In this document: positions 1 through 10,797 of the stretch, piece after piece
Position numbering within the stretch: the stretch's first letter is position 1
Layout: the number at the start of each line of letters is the position of its first letter
Assembly (NCBI GenBank): GCA_964647565.1
Contig: CAZYIM010000054.1
Coordinates: 1 to 12,570, forward strand
Reading direction: 5' to 3'
DNA: 12,570 bases
Source: an uncultured Methanosarcinales archaeon
GTDB lineage: Archaea > Nanobdellota > Nanobdellia > Woesearchaeales > CAZYIM01
Made by a program: the position numbers and the translations under genes
Notes under the pieces: generated by a model
Seen by the model: only the letters and a program-made list of their open reading frames with translations
Database searches by the model: none
What the model was told of the DNA's origin: nothing

Positions 1-297
1 AATTATAATGACCTAAGGGAGAATACTTATATCCCAAGATTATTGGTTTTGTATATTATGCCTACTGAAGAAGACCAATGGATGACACATAGTGAAGAAA
101 ATTTGATAAGTCGTAAGTGTGCTTACTGGTGTAATCTTAGTGGTTCTCCGGATGTAAGTAATACTACTTCTGTAACAGTTTATATTCCCAAAGAGAATGT
201 TTTAAATATTGGGGCACTAAGAGAATTAATGACAATTGCTTCAAGAAAAGATGACCTACCACACATTCTTAATGCGGGGGGTGAAAATAATGAATAA
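1..297 (+). CDS. DUF4365-like protein (predicted PD-(D/E)XK nuclease fold), C-terminal part; 5' truncated by the window edge
   Basis: Frame 1 is open from base 1: NYNDLRENTYIPRLLVLYIMP..W......L..RKCAYW.NL.G......TTSVTVYIPKEN. This matches my recollection of the DUF4365 C-terminal pattern. The stop TAA (295-297) overlaps the next ATG. Confidence 0.7.
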   Translation, partial: NYNDLRENTYIPRLLVLYIMPTEEDQWMTHSEENLISRKCAYWCNLSGSPDVSNTTSVTVYIPKENVLNIGALRELMTIASRKDDLPHILNAGGENNE

Positions 298-1420
298 TTC
301 CAAATTTATTAACCGTATGGGTGAAATTAAGTTAAACAGTATTAAGAATTACATTAATTCAAGAGGTTGGAATGAAAAAGAAACAAAGAAATCATTAATT
401 GAATTTACCAATGAAAAGGAAGATATAAACTACCAGTTACTAGTTCCAACAGATACATCTTATATTGATTATAAAAACTTAATGTACAATGCATTAGCGT
501 TATTAAGCAAATTTGAGAATAAGAGTGTTTATCAAATCTTCAATGATATTGTTATTCCAACTTCAGATATAATTAGGATAGCAATAGATGGTGAAAAGAC
601 TGTAGATGGAACAATCCCATTTGAAGATGGTTTGGGTGCATTGGAGGCATTCAAAAAAGCGATAATTGCTTCGGCATATAGTGTTGAAAAACCAGAACAG
701 TACCATAAGAGAACATATAGCCCAGAAGTTGAAAAGTTTCTTTCATCATGTAGATTGGGGCAAACCGAAAAAGGTAGTTTTGTGGCAACATTTTTCTGCC
801 CTCTTGATAATGTTCAATTGACATTATTTGGAGATGAAATTGAAAAATTCGGTAGAAAAGCTACAACTAATTTAATGAACTCCTTAAATCATATTCGTAA
901 ATCCATTGATAATCAGGATTTGAATAAAGTAATTAAGCCATTAGAAGGAGATCCGATTGTGAGTGGAAATCTATGTGATGCTATTTTAGATTTAAGACCT
1001 TCTTCAGTTAATTATAAACTTAGATTTGGTGTTACCTGGGCAAATAACAATCCTCCTGCAAATGTTTCCTCAAAAATTATCTTTAAAAGCTCTGATATGA
1101 GCGACATCACATTTCTTTCCAAAAGATTAGAACCAAAGACTGAAGAACATGTAGATACATTTATTGGTAAAGTAAGTCAATTAAGGGGGGAACCAAAAAA
1201 TAGTAAGATGCAAGGAGAAGCAATATTAACATTATTAGATTCTGAGGAGAATTATATCAGAGCTAAAGTAAGTTTAGGGTATCATTATTATCAGAAAGCA
1301 GTGAAATATCACGCATCCAATTCAAATGTTTCAATAAAAGGGAAGCTAGTTAAAGAGTCAAGTAGAATACATCGCATTGTTAATTTTTCTGAGTTTGGAG
1401 AACTTAAAAAATCTGAGTAA
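290..1420 (+). CDS. Hypothetical protein (~376 aa), partner of the DUF4365-like gene; possible OB-fold-like C-terminal domain
   Basis: Long ORF. The ATG at 290 follows an SD-like GGGGGTGA (276-283) and overlaps the upstream stop (ATGAATAA). It has a GQTEKGSF motif and a beta-rich C-terminus (FIGKVSQL...VSIKGKL). Confidence 0.8.
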   Translation: MNNSKFINRMGEIKLNSIKNYINSRGWNEKETKKSLIEFTNEKEDINYQLLVPTDTSYIDYKNLMYNALALLSKFENKSVYQIFNDIVIPTSDIIRIAIDGEKTVDGTIPFEDGLGALEAFKKAIIASAYSVEKPEQYHKRTYSPEVEKFLSSCRLGQTEKGSFVATFFCPLDNVQLTLFGDEIEKFGRKATTNLMNSLNHIRKSIDNQDLNKVIKPLEGDPIVSGNLCDAILDLRPSSVNYKLRFGVTWANNNPPANVSSKIIFKSSDMSDITFLSKRLEPKTEEHVDTFIGKVSQLRGEPKNSKMQGEAILTLLDSEENYIRAKVSLGYHYYQKAVKYHASNSNVSIKGKLVKESSRIHRIVNFSEFGELKKSE

Positions 1421-1566
1421 AGTTTTCTCGCCCCCATATTAATTTCTTTTTCGAAGAAAAAAACTATCTTAAAAGCCCCCTCTTAATAAATTTCTTAACG
1501 CAGTTAAGGCTATATGTGCGTAGCACTTGGACTCCCCCTTCCCTTTCTAAGTAATCCAAAAATTGG

Positions 1567-1655
1567 ATATAACATGGCGGATAGTCGAAGTTGCGAGTAT
1601 ATCGAGCAATTTGGGCGTAGGAGCGTGCTCCGGAGCCGACTATCCGCTGTTATGC
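1567..1655. repeat. attC-like recombination site 1 (branched imperfect inverted repeat)
   Basis: ATAACA(1569-1574)+TG bulge+GCGGATAGTCG(1577-1587) pairs with CGACTATCCGC(1637-1647)+TGTTAT(1648-1653). AAC/GTT core triplets sit at both ends. Internal stems: AAGTTGC/GCAATTT (1588-1612) and GGAGC/GCTCC (1620-1631). Confidence 0.75.
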
Positions 1656-1765
1656 TCCCGAATCCCCTACGTTAGTGGGGGTGAGGCAAGGGTTTACGTA
1701 GTAAATCCGCAGAGTTGCGCCTTTTCTTTTGGCTTTTACCCTATTTCTGGCGCAATTGAGTATAA
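1573..1765 (-). mobile_element. Putative gene-less (empty) 193-bp cassette between the two AA^C crossover points
   Basis: Bounded by two AAC cores (1571-1573, 1764-1766). GAGTATAAC (1758-1766) is complementary to GTTATGCTC (1649-1657), as expected for the reconstituted site of an excised circle. Confidence 0.6.
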
Positions 1766-1809
1766 CATGTATTAAGCGATACGGAGTTTCGTTTAATACC
1801 GTGTTATTT
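1760..1809. repeat. attC/attI-like recombination site 2 (short hairpin next to the recombinase)
   Basis: ATAACAT(1762-1768)+GTATTAAGCGA(1769-1779) pairs with TCGTTTAATAC(1789-1799)+unpaired C1800+GTGTTAT(1801-1807). It shares AATTGnnTATAACATG with site 1. Confidence 0.7.
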
Positions 1810-1851
1810 CTGTTTTTTGGGTGTGAGGTTTTATTAGGGAGGTTTGTTTTA

Positions 1852-1858
1852 GGGTGAT
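1852..1858 (+). promoter_or_regulatory. Shine-Dalgarno-like site of the recombinase gene
   Basis: GGGTGAT immediately upstream of ATG 1861; GGTGAT is the archaeal SD core. Confidence 0.55.
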
Positions 1859-1860
1859 TT

Positions 1861-2625
1861 ATGGAAAATAAGGATGATTTTCTTGCTAACAAGATTCGAG
1901 AATGGCGAATGAAGGGTTACTCGAAGAGGACTATTGAAACTTATTGCTATTTTATTCGGCGGTATAAGCAGTCGGGGATGGGGGCTTCTGATTTTGTTTA
2001 TTCTTTGGTGGCCAAGGGATATTCTACAGCATCTATTCGTCTTGTTTGTGCGGCTCTGCGAAGCTATTTGCCTGACACGCATATCCTTGTTCCTAAGAGG
2101 AAGAAGAGACTTCCGGTTGTTCTTTCCAAAAATGAGATTGAAAAAATGATTGCATCAACGCATAATCTAAAGCATCGTCTAGTTATTATACTGTTGTTCT
2201 CATCTGGTATGAGGGTTTCTGAACTGATCAATCTTTGCCTTGAAGATATTGATCTTGCTCGGAACATGATTCACTTAAAGGGCTGTAAGGGTGGTAAGGA
2301 TAGGTTAGCCTTGCTTTCGAAGAAGGCGAAAGCTGAACTTCGTAGATATGGTGTGTGTGAAGGGCTGGTTTTCTCAAAAGAGGGTAGAAAATACTCGCAT
2401 AGGTCTGTGCAGCAAATAGTATCTGATCTTGCAGTCAGAGCTGGTATTCCTAAGAGAGTAACCCCTCATACTCTTAGGCATTCATTTGCTACTCATCTGC
2501 TGGAGAGCGGTACCGATATTAGACATATTCAGAAGCTTCTTGGTCATTCTAACTTGGATACTACTCAGATTTACACTCATGTGGCCCGAAATGATTTGAG
2601 AAGAATAAAAAGTCCTTTTGATTGA
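1861..2625 (+). CDS. Tyrosine recombinase (Xer/integron-integrase-like) with a short SAM-like N-terminal domain
   Basis: Full catalytic set: R118 (SGMR), K143 (KGGKDR), H203-x-x-R206 (HTLRHSFATHLLE), H229 (LLGH) and Y238 (TQIYTHV). N-terminal GYSKRTIETY, K-LPVVLS and C-terminal SPFD resemble IntI-related recombinases. Confidence 0.95.
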   Translation: MENKDDFLANKIREWRMKGYSKRTIETYCYFIRRYKQSGMGASDFVYSLVAKGYSTASIRLVCAALRSYLPDTHILVPKRKKRLPVVLSKNEIEKMIASTHNLKHRLVIILLFSSGMRVSELINLCLEDIDLARNMIHLKGCKGGKDRLALLSKKAKAELRRYGVCEGLVFSKEGRKYSHRSVQQIVSDLAVRAGIPKRVTPHTLRHSFATHLLESGTDIRHIQKLLGHSNLDTTQIYTHVARNDLRRIKSPFD

Positions 2626-2626
2626 C

Positions 2627-3838
2627 TCACTGCCCCACACTATAGTAATCTTCCAGAATTATCTTGTCGAGTTTTTCGAGGTCTTTGACAACATAGAGCT
2701 TGCCAGCGCCTACTTCTGCTATCTTCTTGGCGAGTTCTTCACCTTTTTCATCCAGTTTGATACCGACCAACGAGATTGTGATCTTAGCGTTTCTTGCCTT
2801 TGAGACTGCTTCCATGGTGGCCCTTTCAGGCTCATCACCTTTGGTGGGAATTGCATCAGTAAGAATCACAAGATGTTTGGTGGCATTGCCCGGAGGGAAC
2901 ATCTCAAGAGCCTTTTCAATGGTCTTTGCAATATCTGTTTCCATCGCAGCCCTAATCTTGGTTAACTCTTCAATAAGGTCATTGAAGTTCTCTGTTGGCG
3001 GTACAGCCGCTTTGATGTCTGAGCCAAATACAATCAAACCTACCTTGTTCTTTTCTGTTATTGCCTTAAAAGCCAGTGCAATTCCTGCCTTTTTACAGGT
3101 CTTAAGCTTGTCGCCTTTCATTGAACCTGAAGAATCAATTGCATAGATGATGTTTATCTTGCCCTTTTTTTGCCTTTCAAAGATCCTTATATCATCTTTT
3201 TCTAATGCTGTATGTCCTCTTCTTATGGCTGTCTTGACGCTCTGTTTGATCGCAATATCCCTATATCTGGTTTTTTTGAAGTTGACATAGTCTTTCTTAT
3301 CCCCATAAAGGGATTTTTTCTTCTCTTTTTTCTCTCCCCAGCCTTTGGGCACAAGATTAGTAAGCTCCTCTGCGTATAATACCAAAGAACTTAACTTGAT
3401 TGCTTTGTCTGTGACAATGAAATCCTTGTCAACAAGGCCTTTTTCTTGTAGAAGATGAATCCTTTCCTCGATCCTTTTCTTGAGCTCTTTTTTGAATTCA
3501 GGTATGTTGATATTCTTTTCTATATAGTCAGAGGGATAGCCTGTCAATTCTCTGACTATGGTCTCACCGTAAAGCTTTTGGGCAAGCTTGTAATCCTTGA
3601 CCATGTTCTTGAACATGAGATCGGGTGTGAAGCTGCCCATACTCTGATTGATGCTTTCAGCAATCAGCTTGCCGTCATCTATTGTCTCCTGGTCGCTTTC
3701 AATAACAGAATGCATCAGTTTGTTCTCGTCACTGTTGTTTCGATCTAACTTGCCAGATAACTCTTCAATCTTTTCGAGTTTTTCCTTGTTAAGCTTCACA
3801 TCCGGGGCAACGTCAGGCAACCTGTCAAAGGTAACCAC
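2627..3838 (-). CDS. von Willebrand factor A domain protein (ChlD/BchD C-terminal-like), partner of the AAA+ ATPase
   Basis: MIDAS DSSGS motif (IYAIDSSGSM), later T and LVILTD. GTG start overlaps the end of the ATPase gene. Confidence 0.9.
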   Translation of the reverse strand: MVTFDRLPDVAPDVKLNKEKLEKIEELSGKLDRNNSDENKLMHSVIESDQETIDDGKLIAESINQSMGSFTPDLMFKNMVKDYKLAQKLYGETIVRELTGYPSDYIEKNINIPEFKKELKKRIEERIHLLQEKGLVDKDFIVTDKAIKLSSLVLYAEELTNLVPKGWGEKKEKKKSLYGDKKDYVNFKKTRYRDIAIKQSVKTAIRRGHTALEKDDIRIFERQKKGKINIIYAIDSSGSMKGDKLKTCKKAGIALAFKAITEKNKVGLIVFGSDIKAAVPPTENFNDLIEELTKIRAAMETDIAKTIEKALEMFPPGNATKHLVILTDAIPTKGDEPERATMEAVSKARNAKITISLVGIKLDEKGEELAKKIAEVGAGKLYVVKDLEKLDKIILEDYYSVGQ

Positions 3839-4814
3839 CCTTTTCTTCTAAGAACTTATCAAAAACATTAATAATATACTCTTCAGGTTTCTCTATGTAC
3901 TTGACACTTGGTTTTAATCTTATCCTGTGACTCAATACAGAAACTAAGACTGCTTGTATATCTTTCAAATCCACCTTTTCCCTGCCATTGACTTTTGCGT
4001 TTGACTGGGCTCTTTCAAAAATGCCTATGCTTGCACGGACACTGGGTTTTTTTTCTATGTTGTTATCTTCCCGCAGATCCCTGACAAAACCTATAATTCC
4101 ATTAAGCAGTTTATCTGGGAAATCTATAATCTTCTTACCCGCAGTAAGCACTATCTCTTTTTCTATCTCAGCACTTTCAGGATAGCCGACATAGATGATA
4201 TCAAACCTGTCTAAGAAGACGTCACTTAGAGGCTCTGTTGAACTATCTTCAGGATTCATAGTACCTATGAATATGAAATCAACATCTAAATCTACTGAAT
4301 AACTTCCTATAGTAACCTTTTTCTCTTCAAGAGCCTGTAATAGCGCGTTCTGTAGTTTTTCTGAGCATCTGTTGATCTCGTCGAAGAACAATACGCCCTG
4401 ATTGGCCTTGAACATTTTGCCTGGAGTGAAGGCTTCTAATGACAATGGTCCGAATTTCATGGCCTTGATTGGATCAATATCGCCTATCAGGTCTTCAGCC
4501 GTCAGGTCTGGGCTTCCTTGTACTCTGACAAACAGTTCCATTCCCTTGACTGTCTTGGTTTTAGTGTGCTTCTTTGCTTTGCACTCAGGGCAGACAGGTT
4601 TCGTTGGCTCACAGTTGTAGGAGCAGTTATTAACTTTTTTTTCTGGTAGTATCTTGGCAACATTCTTGGCAAGCGTGGTCTTGCCTATGCCGGGGGCTCC
4701 AACAAGGATGACATGCCGATCCATAAGAAGGGCTGATTTAAGCTGTTTCTTGACCTCTTCTTGACCCAGAATGTCATCAAAATTGTTTTTAAGTATGTAG
4801 TTTTCGAATTGCAT
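3825..4814 (-). CDS. AAA+ ATPase, Mg-chelatase ChlI / MoxR-like
   Basis: Walker A GAPGIGKT, Walker B LFFDEINR, TMNPED sensor, LDRF arginine finger, and a ChlI-like Cys cluster CSYNCEPTKPVCPEC. Confidence 0.9.
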   Translation of the reverse strand: MQFENYILKNNFDDILGQEEVKKQLKSALLMDRHVILVGAPGIGKTTLAKNVAKILPEKKVNNCSYNCEPTKPVCPECKAKKHTKTKTVKGMELFVRVQGSPDLTAEDLIGDIDPIKAMKFGPLSLEAFTPGKMFKANQGVLFFDEINRCSEKLQNALLQALEEKKVTIGSYSVDLDVDFIFIGTMNPEDSSTEPLSDVFLDRFDIIYVGYPESAEIEKEIVLTAGKKIIDFPDKLLNGIIGFVRDLREDNNIEKKPSVRASIGIFERAQSNAKVNGREKVDLKDIQAVLVSVLSHRIRLKPSVKYIEKPEEYIINVFDKFLEEKGGYL

Positions 4815-7324: not shown

Positions 7325-7567
7325 ATGGTGAAAGCAATGATTACACTTGGAGAAAAGCAGGACAGGATATTAACAATTGTCAAAGGCAAATACGGACTCA
7401 AGACCAAATCAGAAGCAATAAATTTGGTTATAGATAAGTTCGAAGAGGAGATTCTTGAGCCACCACTTAGGCCTGAATTTGTTGAGAAATTGAACAAGAT
7501 AAAGAAACAGAAAGGCCTCAGGTTCAAGAATGTTGATGAGCTTAGGAAAAGTATTGAAAATGCGTGA
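7325..7567 (+). CDS. Type II antitoxin, DUF2683-like (ribbon-helix-helix type)
   Basis: MVKAMITL....DRILTIVKGKYGLKTKSEAI....EEEILEP.LRPEF matches the archaeal DUF2683 pattern. SD GAGGT at 7313-7317; overlaps the toxin start. Confidence 0.8.
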   Translation: MVKAMITLGEKQDRILTIVKGKYGLKTKSEAINLVIDKFEEEILEPPLRPEFVEKLNKIKKQKGLRFKNVDELRKSIENA

Positions 7568-7829
7568 TTTTGAGATAAAGCCAATTTTAAAAAAGAAGTT
7601 GGATAAGTTGTATAAGAAAGATAGAATTCTTTGTGAATATATTTTTAAGAAGATTGATGAAATTATCAATAATCCCTATATTGAGCATTATAAAAATTTG
7701 AGATATGATTTCAAGAAATCAAAAAGGGTACATATAGGTTCATTTGTCTTGGTTTTCTGTTTTGATAAAGAAAAAGACTTTATTTATTTTGAAGATTTTA
7801 ATCATCATGATCAGATATATGGAAGCTAA
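7560..7829 (+). CDS. Type II toxin, RelE/ParE (YafQ-like) family
   Basis: 89-aa basic protein with KKIDEI..NP..HYKNLRYD....KRVHIGSFVLVF...F.HHD.IY. ATG 7560 overlaps the antitoxin stop (ATGCGTGA). Confidence 0.85.
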   Translation: MRDFEIKPILKKKLDKLYKKDRILCEYIFKKIDEIINNPYIEHYKNLRYDFKKSKRVHIGSFVLVFCFDKEKDFIYFEDFNHHDQIYGS

Positions 7830-7836
7830 AACAATA

Positions 7837-8541
7837 TTACTTTTTTTCAACCTCAATGATTTTCTGATCGATGATGAAGTTATTGCGTTTTACATTTGAT
7901 TTGAGGTAATCAATAACATCTGATTTAAGCTGTTGATACTCTTCAGGATATGTATCGAATGAGAGCTTTAGAGTTTCGAAAAGATCTTCATAATCCTTGT
8001 AGTATATGGTTGATGAGATTGTATACTCTCGAAATTCGTGATTTTTAACAAGATCCAACAGAATATCATACGTGAAGTGGTAATCTGTTTTGACTAAGGC
8101 TGCAAATGCAAGCTTGACAGGGCCGTAATCCGCAGTCTTTCCATTAACCACAAACAAAGCAATCCCGCCAGGATTCAGAGTATCTATAATCTTGTCTAAT
8201 GCTTTTCTCTTATCCTTGAAATAATAGATGACATGGGATGCAATTATTACATCATATTTTTTGTCTGTTTGAAGCTCTTCCCAATCTGAATTAATCAACT
8301 CTACATTTTTAGGAATATTGCCTATGTATTCTCTTTTTTCAACAATTAAGTATTTTTTAAAATTATTAGACATATGCTCTGCAAAGGAGGGATTAGTGCC
8401 CAGGCCAATCTCTAGGCATGTTTTAAAACCTCTTCCTTCAATTAGATTGGATATCTTATCTATAAGAATATTTTTTTCATCTGTTGCTGAAATAAATCTT
8501 TTATACCATGTTTCATTGAACTCAACTTGGTCTACAGGCAT
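7837..8541 (-). CDS. Class I SAM-dependent methyltransferase, substrate unknown
   Basis: Motif I CLEIGLG, acidic IVE, DWE, YDVIIASHVIYY and LNPGG. Confidence 0.85.
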   Translation of the reverse strand: MPVDQVEFNETWYKRFISATDEKNILIDKISNLIEGRGFKTCLEIGLGTNPSFAEHMSNNFKKYLIVEKREYIGNIPKNVELINSDWEELQTDKKYDVIIASHVIYYFKDKRKALDKIIDTLNPGGIALFVVNGKTADYGPVKLAFAALVKTDYHFTYDILLDLVKNHEFREYTISSTIYYKDYEDLFETLKLSFDTYPEEYQQLKSDVIDYLKSNVKRNNFIIDQKIIEVEKK

Positions 8542-8589
8542 AGCTTTGTTGATAGAGTTGTCATATTAAAATGTTTCTTAAATGGCAAA

Positions 8590-8598
8590 TTATATAAA
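8590..8598 (+). promoter_or_regulatory. TATA box of the DUF368 gene
   Basis: TTATATAAA ending ~23 nt before ATG 8622; no SD. Confidence 0.55.
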
Positions 8599-8621
8599 GA
8601 CACATTTAACTAACCAATCTC

Positions 8622-9473
8622 ATGAAGACCACCATCAAAGAATACATTCTCATCTTTCTACGCGGTCTTTTAATGGGTATTGCCGACATCATACCTGGCG
8701 TTTCTGGAGGTACTATGGCACTTGTTACTGGTATCTATCAACGACTTGTACATGCTATCAGCAGCCTAACTTCGGAGTTTGTACCTCAGTTTTTCAAGGG
8801 AAAGTTCAAGAAGGCATTCAAACAGGTTGACTTCGCATTGTTTATCCCTTTACTCCTGGGAATAGCAATAGCTTTTCTGGCACTCTCTCATCTGATGGGC
8901 TTCTTACTTGAAGAATATACTGCATATACATTTGCATTTTTCTTTGGGCTTATACTTTCATCTGCATTTTTTGTATATAAGCATATTGGGAAGATCGGAT
9001 GGTCATCAATAGTAGTAGGCATCATTGGAATGGTTTTTGCGTTTTGGTTTGTTGGCTTGAATCCTTTTGCAGCGAACCACTCTATTCCTATCCTGTTCCT
9101 TTCAGCTGTGATTGCAATCTGTGCAATGATTTTACCAGGCATATCAGGCTCTTTTATCCTGCTTCTTTTAGGGCAATATGAGTATTTGCTTTCTGTTCTT
9201 AGAAACCTGGAAATTGGAAAAATATTTGTTTTTATCATGGGTGCAAGTATTGGTTTGCTGGCATTCTCAAGATTACTCGATTGGCTACTGAAGAAATTCA
9301 AGGCACCTACTATGGCTTTTCTGACAGGATTGATGGTAGGTTCATTAAGGCTGCCTTATACTAAAATTGCAGGATCTGGTGGATATCTTTGGTTAATAAT
9401 TCTGTTAGCACTGATTGGCTTTGGCGCTGTGTTTATCATAGAAAAAAAATTTGGAAATACTAGCAAAGCTTAA
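8622..9473 (+). CDS. DUF368 family membrane protein (polyprenyl-phosphate translocase family)
   Basis: Two signature repeats, MGIADIIPGVSGGTMAL..GIY and AMILPGISGSFILLLLGQY, plus multiple TM helices. Confidence 0.92.
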   Translation: MKTTIKEYILIFLRGLLMGIADIIPGVSGGTMALVTGIYQRLVHAISSLTSEFVPQFFKGKFKKAFKQVDFALFIPLLLGIAIAFLALSHLMGFLLEEYTAYTFAFFFGLILSSAFFVYKHIGKIGWSSIVVGIIGMVFAFWFVGLNPFAANHSIPILFLSAVIAICAMILPGISGSFILLLLGQYEYLLSVLRNLEIGKIFVFIMGASIGLLAFSRLLDWLLKKFKAPTMAFLTGLMVGSLRLPYTKIAGSGGYLWLIILLALIGFGAVFIIEKKFGNTSKA

Positions 9474-10692
9474 TTTTTTCAGTCTTTTCTTTAATATATT
9501 CAGAACTAATTAAATCTTTAACAAGCGCTGTAGGTATCTTGTACTGTCTCTTTAGTTTGGCAAATGCCCATCCTTTCTCAATAAAAGCCTTTTTGCCATG
9601 CTTTTCCATAAACTTCTCAAAATCTGCTCCTGTTTTTTCAGGCGGTCCCTTTCTGATTACAAAATCGCTCATTTTTTCCTTTTTTAACACAAAGTAAAGG
9701 TGAGATGGATAACCGAACTGCCATTTTGATTCAATAATCTTGAAATCATTGATCTTAAGATATTTACATATATGTTCAAACGCTTTCATTATCTTGGCGC
9801 CCACTACATCTTTTTTTCCCTCGAGTGGTGAGACCTCTAAAAAGATAAGCCATTCGTTTGAATTCCTCTTTTGAACCTCTGCATTTGAGATCTTTTTTAT
9901 AGTGAAAAACTCTTTAGAGGATTTATGCAGGAAATCTCTTGCCTTTTGCTTGAAGATATCAAACTTCTCCCTGCCAAGAGCAGCAGCTGCATTTCTATCT
10001 GGCTGGATCGGATCCACCAATATCAAAGGACTGTGAGTTTTAGATTTGTTCAATTCTTTGATGGGATCTTTAAGGTGTTTTTCAACATCAATCACAACTT
10101 TTTTACCCCAGACGCTGGCTTGCATCAGCAGTTTTTCAAATGAGCCATAATGAATTATTAGGATGTCCAGTACATGACCTGAAAAACCTTTGAGGTATGA
10201 CTCAGCACCATATACTTCAATGCCTTTACAGAATTTCTTGGCTAGACGGATCTCATCAGCCAGTTCAGGATTCTTATCGACGTATTTTTTCACATAATAA
10301 ACGTGCAAAGGACTCATGTCTGTGACATTCTCTGCTTTAGTATAATTATCGATATCTAATACAGGTACTAATTCATAGATAATATCCTCCTTCAACTGGA
10401 AATAATCCCTGCTGCCATGTACCCTTTCTAGATTCTCAAAATCACAAAGTACTTTTTCTAGCATATCTGAAATATTTTTATTCTTGTATTTATAGTCAAA
10501 CCTGATAAAAAGATCAACATCATAATCGTTCTTCAGGAACGTACCCTTTGCAAATGAGCCGCCTAGAACGCATTTTGCCTTTATGTTGTTCTTTTTTAGA
10601 TTAGTATTTATACGATCAACTACTTCAATCACGTGTTCCATTAAGACCCTGTCAGGTTTTATTTCTTTTTTCAATTCTTCAAGTAGTTTCAT
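9460..10692 (-). CDS. cca: CCA-adding tRNA nucleotidyltransferase, archaeal class I
   Basis: GGSFAKGTFL..DYDVDLF, ELVP, D.SP.H, YGAE....GFSG...ILI.HYGSF and DPIQP.RNAAAA. ATG 10692 has a TATA-like TTTTTAAAA ~24 nt upstream. Confidence 0.93.
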   Translation of the reverse strand: MKLLEELKKEIKPDRVLMEHVIEVVDRINTNLKKNNIKAKCVLGGSFAKGTFLKNDYDVDLFIRFDYKYKNKNISDMLEKVLCDFENLERVHGSRDYFQLKEDIIYELVPVLDIDNYTKAENVTDMSPLHVYYVKKYVDKNPELADEIRLAKKFCKGIEVYGAESYLKGFSGHVLDILIIHYGSFEKLLMQASVWGKKVVIDVEKHLKDPIKELNKSKTHSPLILVDPIQPDRNAAAALGREKFDIFKQKARDFLHKSSKEFFTIKKISNAEVQKRNSNEWLIFLEVSPLEGKKDVVGAKIMKAFEHICKYLKINDFKIIESKWQFGYPSHLYFVLKKEKMSDFVIRKGPPEKTGADFEKFMEKHGKKAFIEKGWAFAKLKRQYKIPTALVKDLISSEYIKEKTEKIKLC

Positions 10693-10797
10693 AGAACTTA
10701 AAAGAGCCAATCATCTTTTAAAAATCTTCTTCTTCCAATGACTTTTTCGAAAACTTAATATACCCTCTGTGTTAAGAACTATAAAAAGAGGTTGACT

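Follow-up and report, generated by a model that had tools for sequence, protein, structure and literature searches.

Contig C54 (CAZYIM010000054.1), a 12,570-bp stretch from an uncultured archaeon, probably carries the recombinase end of a gene-cassette platform that resembles an integron and belongs to Nanoarchaeia (DPANN archaea of the Woese-/Pacearchaeota type). The window that we analyzed is this entire contig, so no sequence is available to the left of position 1. In the model that we propose, a dedicated XerA-derived tyrosine recombinase (1861–2625) would be encoded just downstream of a docking site, site B (1763–1806), whose (T)AAC core would serve as the insertion point for mobile units. 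A unit would comprise a folded site (spacer, L box, branched top, L box, and R′ core GTTA...), optional cargo, and its own R″ core (...TAAC) at the 3′ end. When free and circular, a unit would have a hairpin site in full, and one crossover between AA and C (between G and TT on the other strand) would linearize the circle into the array, as with integron cassettes. One such unit, unit A, appears to occupy the docking site of the window, and to its left would lie the 3′ end of a second unit, comprising a candidate defense gene pair and a conserved promoter-like module. The recombinase of the window is presumably the cassette recombinase; it would catalyze the exchange, and its likely substrate is the folded strand reading TAAC...GTTA, which is the recombinase sense strand. 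Computation established a site family with folding constraints, the split-site structure of the units, a link between the docking site and one recombinase clade, and variable content at a fixed junction. The features of the window that bear on this model are as follows.

1–297, plus strand: PDC-M02A-like DUF4365 gene truncated at the contig start, with only its 3′ part present (Pfam DUF4365, E = 5.8e-12; PADLOC PDC-M02A, E = 5.3e-30)
290–1420, plus strand: PDC-M02B-like gene of 376 amino acids (PADLOC PDC-M02B, E = 1.1e-93, profile positions 1–372 of 374)
1421–1860: spacer of 440 nucleotides (nt) between the 376-amino acid gene and the recombinase gene
1421–1573, plus strand: module, conserved across genomes, in which an A/T-rich TATA-like box is combined with two GNA-loop mini-hairpins in each of two tandem units
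1570–1652, plus strand: site A, a folded attC-like site (TAAC at 1570–1573, GTTA at 1649–1652)
1574–1766, plus strand: unit A, a cassette of 193 nt lacking an open reading frame (ORF), which begins directly after TAAC and closes with its own core GAGTATAAC
1763–1806, plus strand: site B, the recombinase-proximal docking site, attI-like (TAAC at 1763–1766, GTTA at 1803–1806)
1861–2625, plus strand: intact XerA-derived tyrosine recombinase of 254 amino acids (Pfam Phage_integrase, E = 1.2e-38; HxxR and Y catalytic motifs)

The initial annotation had described an intact tyrosine recombinase that carries two AAC...GTT-bounded hairpins on its 5′ side and follows AT-rich genes, and the ORF, the folds, and their z-scores bore this description out. 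The left-hand AT-rich genes are real ORFs with a GC content of 0.26–0.35. Site A is composed of an R box (TAAC/GTTA), a 2-nt asymmetric spacer, an 11-bp L box, and a three-way-junction top. Its 11-bp stem, GCGGATAGTCG paired with CGACTATCCGC, lies beneath the branched top, and the DNA fold of the site has a z-score of −3.30, with 2 of 200 shuffled sequences folding equally well. Site B has a simpler order, in which TAAC is followed by ATG and then by a 9-bp hairpin, TATTAAGCG/CGTTTAATA (z = −4.10; 1 of 200 shuffles equally good). It begins 98 nt 5′ of the recombinase ATG, and a docking site adjoining the gene is therefore present. The left arms of the two sites are direct repeats 193 nt apart, and the entire spacer (1421–1860) folds with z = −6.4 on the plus strand and −3.2 on the minus strand.

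The R′ core of unit A, GTTATGCTC (1649–1657), pairs with the unit's own 3′ core at eight of nine positions plus one G-T, compared with only six of nine pairs with the resident upstream core. The module terminates in the core arm ATTGGATATAAC (1562–1573) and forms the 3′ end of the left-hand cassette; with its TATA-like boxes, it may also act as an outward promoter. The two genes to its left match both proteins of the PADLOC candidate defense system PDC-M02, and the product of the second (290–1420) had no match in Pfam or NCBIfam. We infer, and only infer, that this pair is cargo of a cassette ending at 1573, because its own hairpin would fall beyond the contig end.

A generic scan for TAAC...GTTA hairpins is unspecific, as shuffled sequences yield 4–6 matches per 12–18 kb, and the case consequently rests on family-specific features and not on AAC/GTT alone. 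Automatic hairpin finders were likewise noisy, and stricter signatures were used in their place.

Of 400 other genomes of the class, 39 contained pieces of the region 1416–1720 at 75–94% identity, frequently at the ends of contigs; the search among genomes of the same family covered a single genome. The relatives are small genomes whose public records are labeled Woesearchaeota, Pacearchaeota, or Nanoarchaeota. An exact match to the final 21 nt preceding the first junction, allowing one degenerate base, was found in 44 loci of a species-genome collection. Upstream of the junction is a module of ∼150 nt, whose two tandem units each contain an A/T-rich box and a pair of small hairpins. Similarity of at least 90% between genomes spans the module and ends within a few nucleotides of TAAC. 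Beyond TAAC, the sequence splits into classes, among them the “type 1” three-way-junction hairpin, which resembles site A, and a class in which a short site B-like hairpin is followed by an Xer-like gene. Across five genomes, the full module occurred 0–2 times and the left-arm pattern 1–4 times per genome, and a reversed control pattern gave one match in total. A single match of the module pattern in viral contigs lay inside an ORF without module or hairpin and was dismissed as chance.

We then asked whether each unit carries both halves of its own site. For 19 units in nine loci (the window, L068, L067, L072, L073, L075, L085, L019, and L007), the 9 nt starting from GTT on the 3′ side of the hairpin were compared with the 9 nt ending in AAC before the next downstream site. 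The far core of the same unit was perfectly complementary (9/9) in 18 of the 19 units, which span 193–3449 nt; the exception was unit A of the window. The resident upstream core, by comparison, was a perfect match in 2 of 19 cases (mean of 6.5 of 9), and an all-by-all control gave 12 perfect pairs among 255 (mean of 5.9). Because both halves of its own site are found in each unit, the units are best described as circularly permuted cassettes cut at (T)AAC. The same result places the module at the 3′ end of gene-bearing units, as seen in L068.

The arrangement is most evident in L068 (G402:C24), where at least 11 type 1 hairpins, all in one orientation, lie within 15.5 kb, and every unit begins directly after TAAC and finishes with TAAC. 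An ORF-less unit of 249 nt is present there three times in tandem at 99% identity (7888–8639), and a fourth copy, with a run of N inside it, lies ∼700 nt away after a different, ORF-bearing unit. In all eight loci showing both elements (the window, L067, L072, L073, L075, L085, L082, and L019/L077), the type 1 hairpins are upstream of and co-oriented with the recombinase. Together with the split-site result, these arrays agree with the integron-like layout, running leftward from the 5′ end of the recombinase gene, that had been proposed from the window alone. In L072, L073, L075, and L085, the recombinase-adjacent unit holds a divergent ORF with the hairpin at the 3′ end of that ORF, which is the canonical integron geometry; with three further units in L068, seven units have a hairpin in this position.

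Variable cargo upstream of homologous recombinases, as anticipated in the initial annotation, was apparent when loci with near-identical recombinases were compared: the 60 nt to the right of TAAC were 70–90% identical, whereas the 60 nt to the left were 27–47% identical. At “empty” loci (L056, L030, L064/L069, and L084), the module is joined straight to the docking site, whereas in the window unit A stands between them.

The cargo, assessed by scanning ORFs in and beside the arrays, consists mostly of restriction-modification and other defense genes. It includes AlwI, TdeIII, and HaeIII restriction enzymes, Dcm and N4/N6 methylases, and type I hsdMSR genes. GmrSD (found twice), Mrr, ThsB-type TIR, HNH, and LemA proteins were also present, as were radical S-adenosylmethionine (SAM) proteins and SAM methyltransferases.

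The hairpins are conserved as structures. An RNAalifold consensus of 33 aligned hairpins contains 24 pairs, 14 of which, distributed over the L box and the two upper arms, show compensatory changes. A single G-U pair is retained in 32 of the 33 hairpins, and the junction sequences GAAGT and ATTTGG are conserved. The L box occurs in 21 distinct sequences; 353 of its 363 cells are paired (334 Watson-Crick and 19 G-T) and 10 are mismatched, and G-T/T-G pairs (19) outnumber A-C/C-A combinations (4). Of 32 hairpins, 29 under DNA parameters and 31 under RNA parameters gave a better fold for the strand reading TAAC...GTTA than for the complementary strand. A similar strand bias was found for C-GNA-G mini-hairpins, of which the spacer (1421–1860) has four on one strand and none on the other, a count reached by none of 500 shuffles. 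The remaining window has none, and the strand counts are 14 versus 0 in L068 and 8 versus 0 in L067. GNA triloops closed by a C-G pair are unusually stable in DNA and would favor single-stranded DNA over RNA.

Individual sites and units showed further features. The hairpin cores of L085 read GCCTAAC and GTTAGGC. In the complete chromosome G401 (locus L067), the regions examined with a hairpin and a recombinase module were 4093–4198 and 14141–14344 of the reverse complement; one hairpin there has the L box ATT-C-AAGCG/CGCTTAAT, with an extra-helical C as in classical attC sites. The G401 recombinase is accompanied by a docking site and a one-unit module of its own, and a second module, with type 1 units, lies ∼10 kb away. 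The post-hairpin part of ORF-less units, termed domain 2 (1653–1766 in the window, and its relatives), keeps the blocks CCCCGA, GAGAGCGCAGCGTGG, and GCAGAGTTG, which sit between small GNA-loop hairpins.

The docking site is linked to one group of recombinases. Our comparison of the window enzyme with known families supported the earlier suggestion that neither the enzyme nor its sites are canonical. The enzyme scored 215.2 bits on the NCBIfam XerA model (NF040815; cut-off of 220), thereby missing the XerA equivalog threshold, and 172.7 bits on the integron integrase model TIGR02249, whose cut-off is 265. The closest solved structure is Pyrococcus abyssi XerA (4a8e, E = 1.1e-46). Alignment with VchIntIA (2a3v) splits into two blocks, with query residues 12–161 matching chain residues 9–178 and query residues 182–252 matching 246–316. 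About 47 IntI residues thus have no counterpart between query positions 161 and 182, indicating that the IntI-specific additional domain around patch III is absent.

Homologs at E ≤ 1e-30 are present in 257 of 401 genomes of the class. Many of the closest ones begin 100–230 nt from a contig start, which indicates that assemblies break at the site. We defined a docking-site signature as AAC, 3 nt, and then [T/G/C]ATTA opening a 9-bp hairpin. It was found upstream of 21 of the 29 closest homologs, and four of the eight misses have <130 nt of upstream sequence; among second paralogs, from the same or other genomes, it was found upstream of 4 of 20. In a maximum-likelihood tree of 54 rows, one clade with support of 96/89 comprised 26 rows with the site, no row found to lack it, and five rows whose upstream sequence was too short. 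The window recombinase falls inside this clade, and in every member with enough upstream sequence the docking site lies ∼60–270 nt before the start codon. Nearly identical members of the clade were found in different families and orders, a distribution indicative of horizontal spread. A search of the genome with the window enzyme returned the window gene itself, a paralog on a separate contig (G000:C48), and a 49-amino acid fragment on contig C67. The C48 paralog falls in a mostly site-less group. On the XerA model, the five scanned members of that group scored 261–281 bits (276.6 for the C48 paralog), compared with 201–225 bits for seven scanned members of the site-associated clade.

Two studies provided four contig sets from marine or seawater metagenomes in which unit A was also traced. 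In all four, 1568/9–1768 formed a separate contig piece with a depth of 13.8, 13.5, 13.1, and 8.8, compared with 2.6–5.3 for the neighboring pieces, although the depth of a contig does not equate to copy number and may include contributions from relatives or other organisms. The break points coincide with both TAAC cores. In two of the four sets, the contig continues past 1768 into a different sequence that starts like another type 1 hairpin; unit A therefore has a second right-hand neighbor in nature. No match to unit A was found in Joint Genome Institute metagenome contigs.

Several alternative explanations were weighed against the cassette platform. The hairpins could be duplex dif-like core sites in alternating orientation that serve classical duplex Xer recombination or elements resembling integrative mobile elements exploiting Xer (IMEX), with no single-strand folding. 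The enzyme is XerA-like, each hairpin amounts to two inverted core sites, and the split-site result is equally expected from duplex recombination at the core. We nevertheless regard this explanation as unlikely, given that the P2 and P3 arms, which lie outside any core site, show compensatory changes, that a duplex site needs neither a consistently better-folding strand nor one-strand GNA-loop mini-hairpins, and that the same genome has a separate XerA paralog above the model cut-off. Somewhat less probable still is a structured RNA, in which the module would be a strong promoter, unit A and its relatives would be small non-coding RNA genes or leaders, and the recombinase would do no more than use such a gene as a target for integration. 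Such a role would fit the TATA-like boxes upstream, the better folding of the sense strand (by a larger margin under RNA parameters), the retained G-U pair, the conserved junction sequences, and the spacer z-score of −6.4. It leaves unexplained both the complementary far-end core of gene-bearing units, up to 3.4 kb away, and the clade-specific docking site, and Rfam (Rfam 15) had no match in 1421–1860 at E values up to 1. On the whole window, the same search gave only two chance-level matches, both outside the spacer; at the gathering threshold, Rfam gave no matches in 19 related loci, and ARAGORN detected no tRNAs in the spacer or in these loci. RNase P RNA and signal recognition particle RNA were rejected as identities of the spacer, both being located elsewhere in the genome on contig C4. 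The RNA and cassette readings do not exclude each other, and the module and the three-way junction may add a second layer to the platform, either outward transcription for each cassette or a structured RNA.

A canonical integron with IntI encoded elsewhere, in which ordinary attC sites are recombined in trans and the Xer-like gene is a bystander, is very improbable in our judgment. The layout and some cores do match printed archaeal attCs of the form nnnTAAC, spacer, ATT(C)AA ... TTAAT, spacer, GTTAnnn (PMC9668308 Data S9), and both the L085 cores and the L067 hairpin with its extra-helical C are of this kind. Yet the docking site tracks one Xer clade, the homologs of the window enzyme in the genome are all XerA-like (no IntI model was run genome-wide), and all 17 Nanoarchaeota genomes with attC arrays are listed with zero IntI in Data S1 (PMC9668308). 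We give least credence to transposition, by which non-autonomous elements of the IS200/IS605 type (like palindrome-associated transposable elements) or miniature inverted-repeat transposable elements would insert 3′ of TAAC. Insertion after a fixed tetranucleotide, sub-terminal hairpins, one-strand bias, and tandem copies would all be expected of such elements. On the other hand, neither unit A nor the 249-nt unit has inverted repeats at its ends, and it is a tyrosine recombinase with which the element family is associated. The Y1 transposase family (PF01797) was found in one of five genomes searched and in neither G000 nor the complete G401. The sole Y1 match among the five genomes (G402:C1:64024–64376, minus strand) carries in-frame stop codons.

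Several observations weigh against the cassette platform itself. The source genome contributes one unit only, with no further member of the family assembled in it. A BLAST search of 1421–1860 against this genome returned only the self-match, and loose motif scans of the genome gave 37 and 14 matches, compared with 28 and 18 in shuffled genomes, with only those on C54 being real. No partner core for the R′ of site B was found downstream, nor a hairpin partner of the module's core anywhere in the assembled genome. Neither a recombination product nor a circular unit was observed, and no single strain provided an empty-versus-filled pair. Some units are long with mixed gene orientation, and in L067 the sites are separated by 9.8 kb with six genes whose membership of the unit is only putative. 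The recombinase of the complete genome G401 is only 37% identical and lies on a long branch, and the window recombinase lacks the special IntI domain that integron recombination is thought to need and that is held necessary for attC recombination (PMC9668308). Strand asymmetry and covariation suit RNA and single-stranded DNA equally, and the module has the appearance of a promoter directing transcription through the sites. Both the three-way junction and domain 2 exceed integron attC tops in conservation and may therefore have another function.

The rest of the window and its source provide the genomic context. The source bin, G000, has 2.68 Mb in 86 contigs and is 86.9% complete with 1.85% contamination. 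Sampled genomes of the class, among those listed, measure ∼0.4–2.1 Mb, and G000 is either an unusually large member of the class or a merged bin. The genes identified to the right of the recombinase are the following.

2627–3838, minus strand: VWA-domain protein, overlapping the MoxR-type ATPase gene; the pair is convergent with the recombinase gene
3825–4814, minus strand: MoxR-type AAA ATPase, paired with the VWA-domain gene
9460–10710: archaeal CCA-adding enzyme

No site of the family was found on this side of the recombinase (2627–4814). At 7325–7829 (plus strand), a 99-amino acid ORF gave a weak match to a ParE toxin (E = 1.7e-4; 22.6 bits, with a cut-off of 23), and an ORF of 80 amino acids lies immediately upstream; the two may form a toxin-antitoxin pair. 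An AT-rich hairpin between convergent genes (7801–7876), with a chance-level match to an Rfam microRNA family (28.5 bits versus 97), is probably a terminator-like structure.

Arrays of attC sites in Archaea were reported by Ghaly et al. (2022; PMC9668308), the only related paper that we found. Their 17 Nanoarchaeota genomes contain 2–26 attCs and no IntI, a lack that the authors attribute to fragmented assemblies (PMC9668308), and the Nanoarchaeota cassettes correlate with PF00145 and PF04471 (Data S7). Both of these families are present in L068. None of six contig prefixes from the loci studied here appears in the supplement of that survey, in keeping with the suggestion of the initial annotation that standard integron searches could miss such a platform. 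A full-text literature search, which did not cover bioRxiv supplements, returned no published account of an Xer-linked cassette platform. We tentatively propose, while thinking it somewhat more apt to fail than to hold, that the “missing integrases” of these IntI-less attC-type arrays are XerA-derived enzymes devoid of the IntI domain, which recombine folded single-stranded sites, and that integron-type capture arose, or persists ancestrally, on a plain Xer scaffold. If true, a widespread cassette system built on a plain Xer-type enzyme would bear on the origin of integrons from Xer recombinases, on why archaeal attC arrays are so often without an integrase, and on whether current integron finders overlook a large pool of mobile defense genes in ultra-small archaea. 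The enzyme and its sites make a short, testable pair, with a protein of 254 amino acids and sites of 83 and 44 nt.

Other Xer-based systems share parts of this organization. In CTX-phage-type IMEX, XerCD integrates a folded single-stranded attP hairpin into dif. There, as in the platform proposed here, an Xer-family enzyme acts on a hairpin of two inverted cores some tens of nucleotides apart, which is joined to a duplex site. The loci described here differ in having no phage genes and many unit types stacked in arrays, and their dedicated Xer paralog has its own gene-adjacent site and not the dif of the host. The pdif modules of Acinetobacter plasmids are bacterial and are moved by the host XerC/D, with duplex Xer recombination proposed as the mechanism. 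They are likewise discrete gene modules bounded by Xer-type sites of alternating orientation, but they lack a conserved folded interior and an adjacent dedicated recombinase. XerA/dif provides the closest protein family, with P. abyssi XerA as the best solved relative. The dif of Thermococcales is single-copy, has an 11-6-11 bp structure, and does not adjoin xerA, according to Cortez et al. (2010; PMC2958812). In contrast, the sites described here are multiple, hairpin-forming, and gene-adjacent and depart from the rule of one dif per chromosome, and the XerA cut-off is exceeded by a second paralog in the genome but not by the enzyme itself.

Integrons offer the most extensive parallel. In both systems, the recombinase gene adjoins a docking site, and the hairpin arrays are co-oriented, with AAC/GTT cores, L boxes of the ATTAA/TTAAT type, and a variable top. 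Units holding the split halves of their own site correspond to circularly permuted cassettes, one strand is favored for folding, and the cargo is rich in restriction-modification genes. The likeness in core and layout to the archaeal attCs printed in Data S9 (PMC9668308) was judged by eye. Viewed on the opposite strand, the locus presents a divergent recombinase, a docking site, and cassettes with a 3′ hairpin, and the better-folding strand becomes the bottom strand, as in integrons. The differences concern the enzyme, which is a XerA paralog without the IntI additional domain, as well as the sites and units. The crossover would fall at the 5′ core of the hairpin in the recombinase sense, the recombinase is co-directional with many cargo genes, and the tops form a conserved three-way junction. 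The L box is usually devoid of an extra-helical base, with asymmetry provided by a 3-nt versus a 1-nt spacer; units may hold several genes in either orientation, and a conserved promoter-like module ends many of them. With an enzyme that lacks the IntI-specific domain, the proposed platform would work like an integron without being a canonical one.

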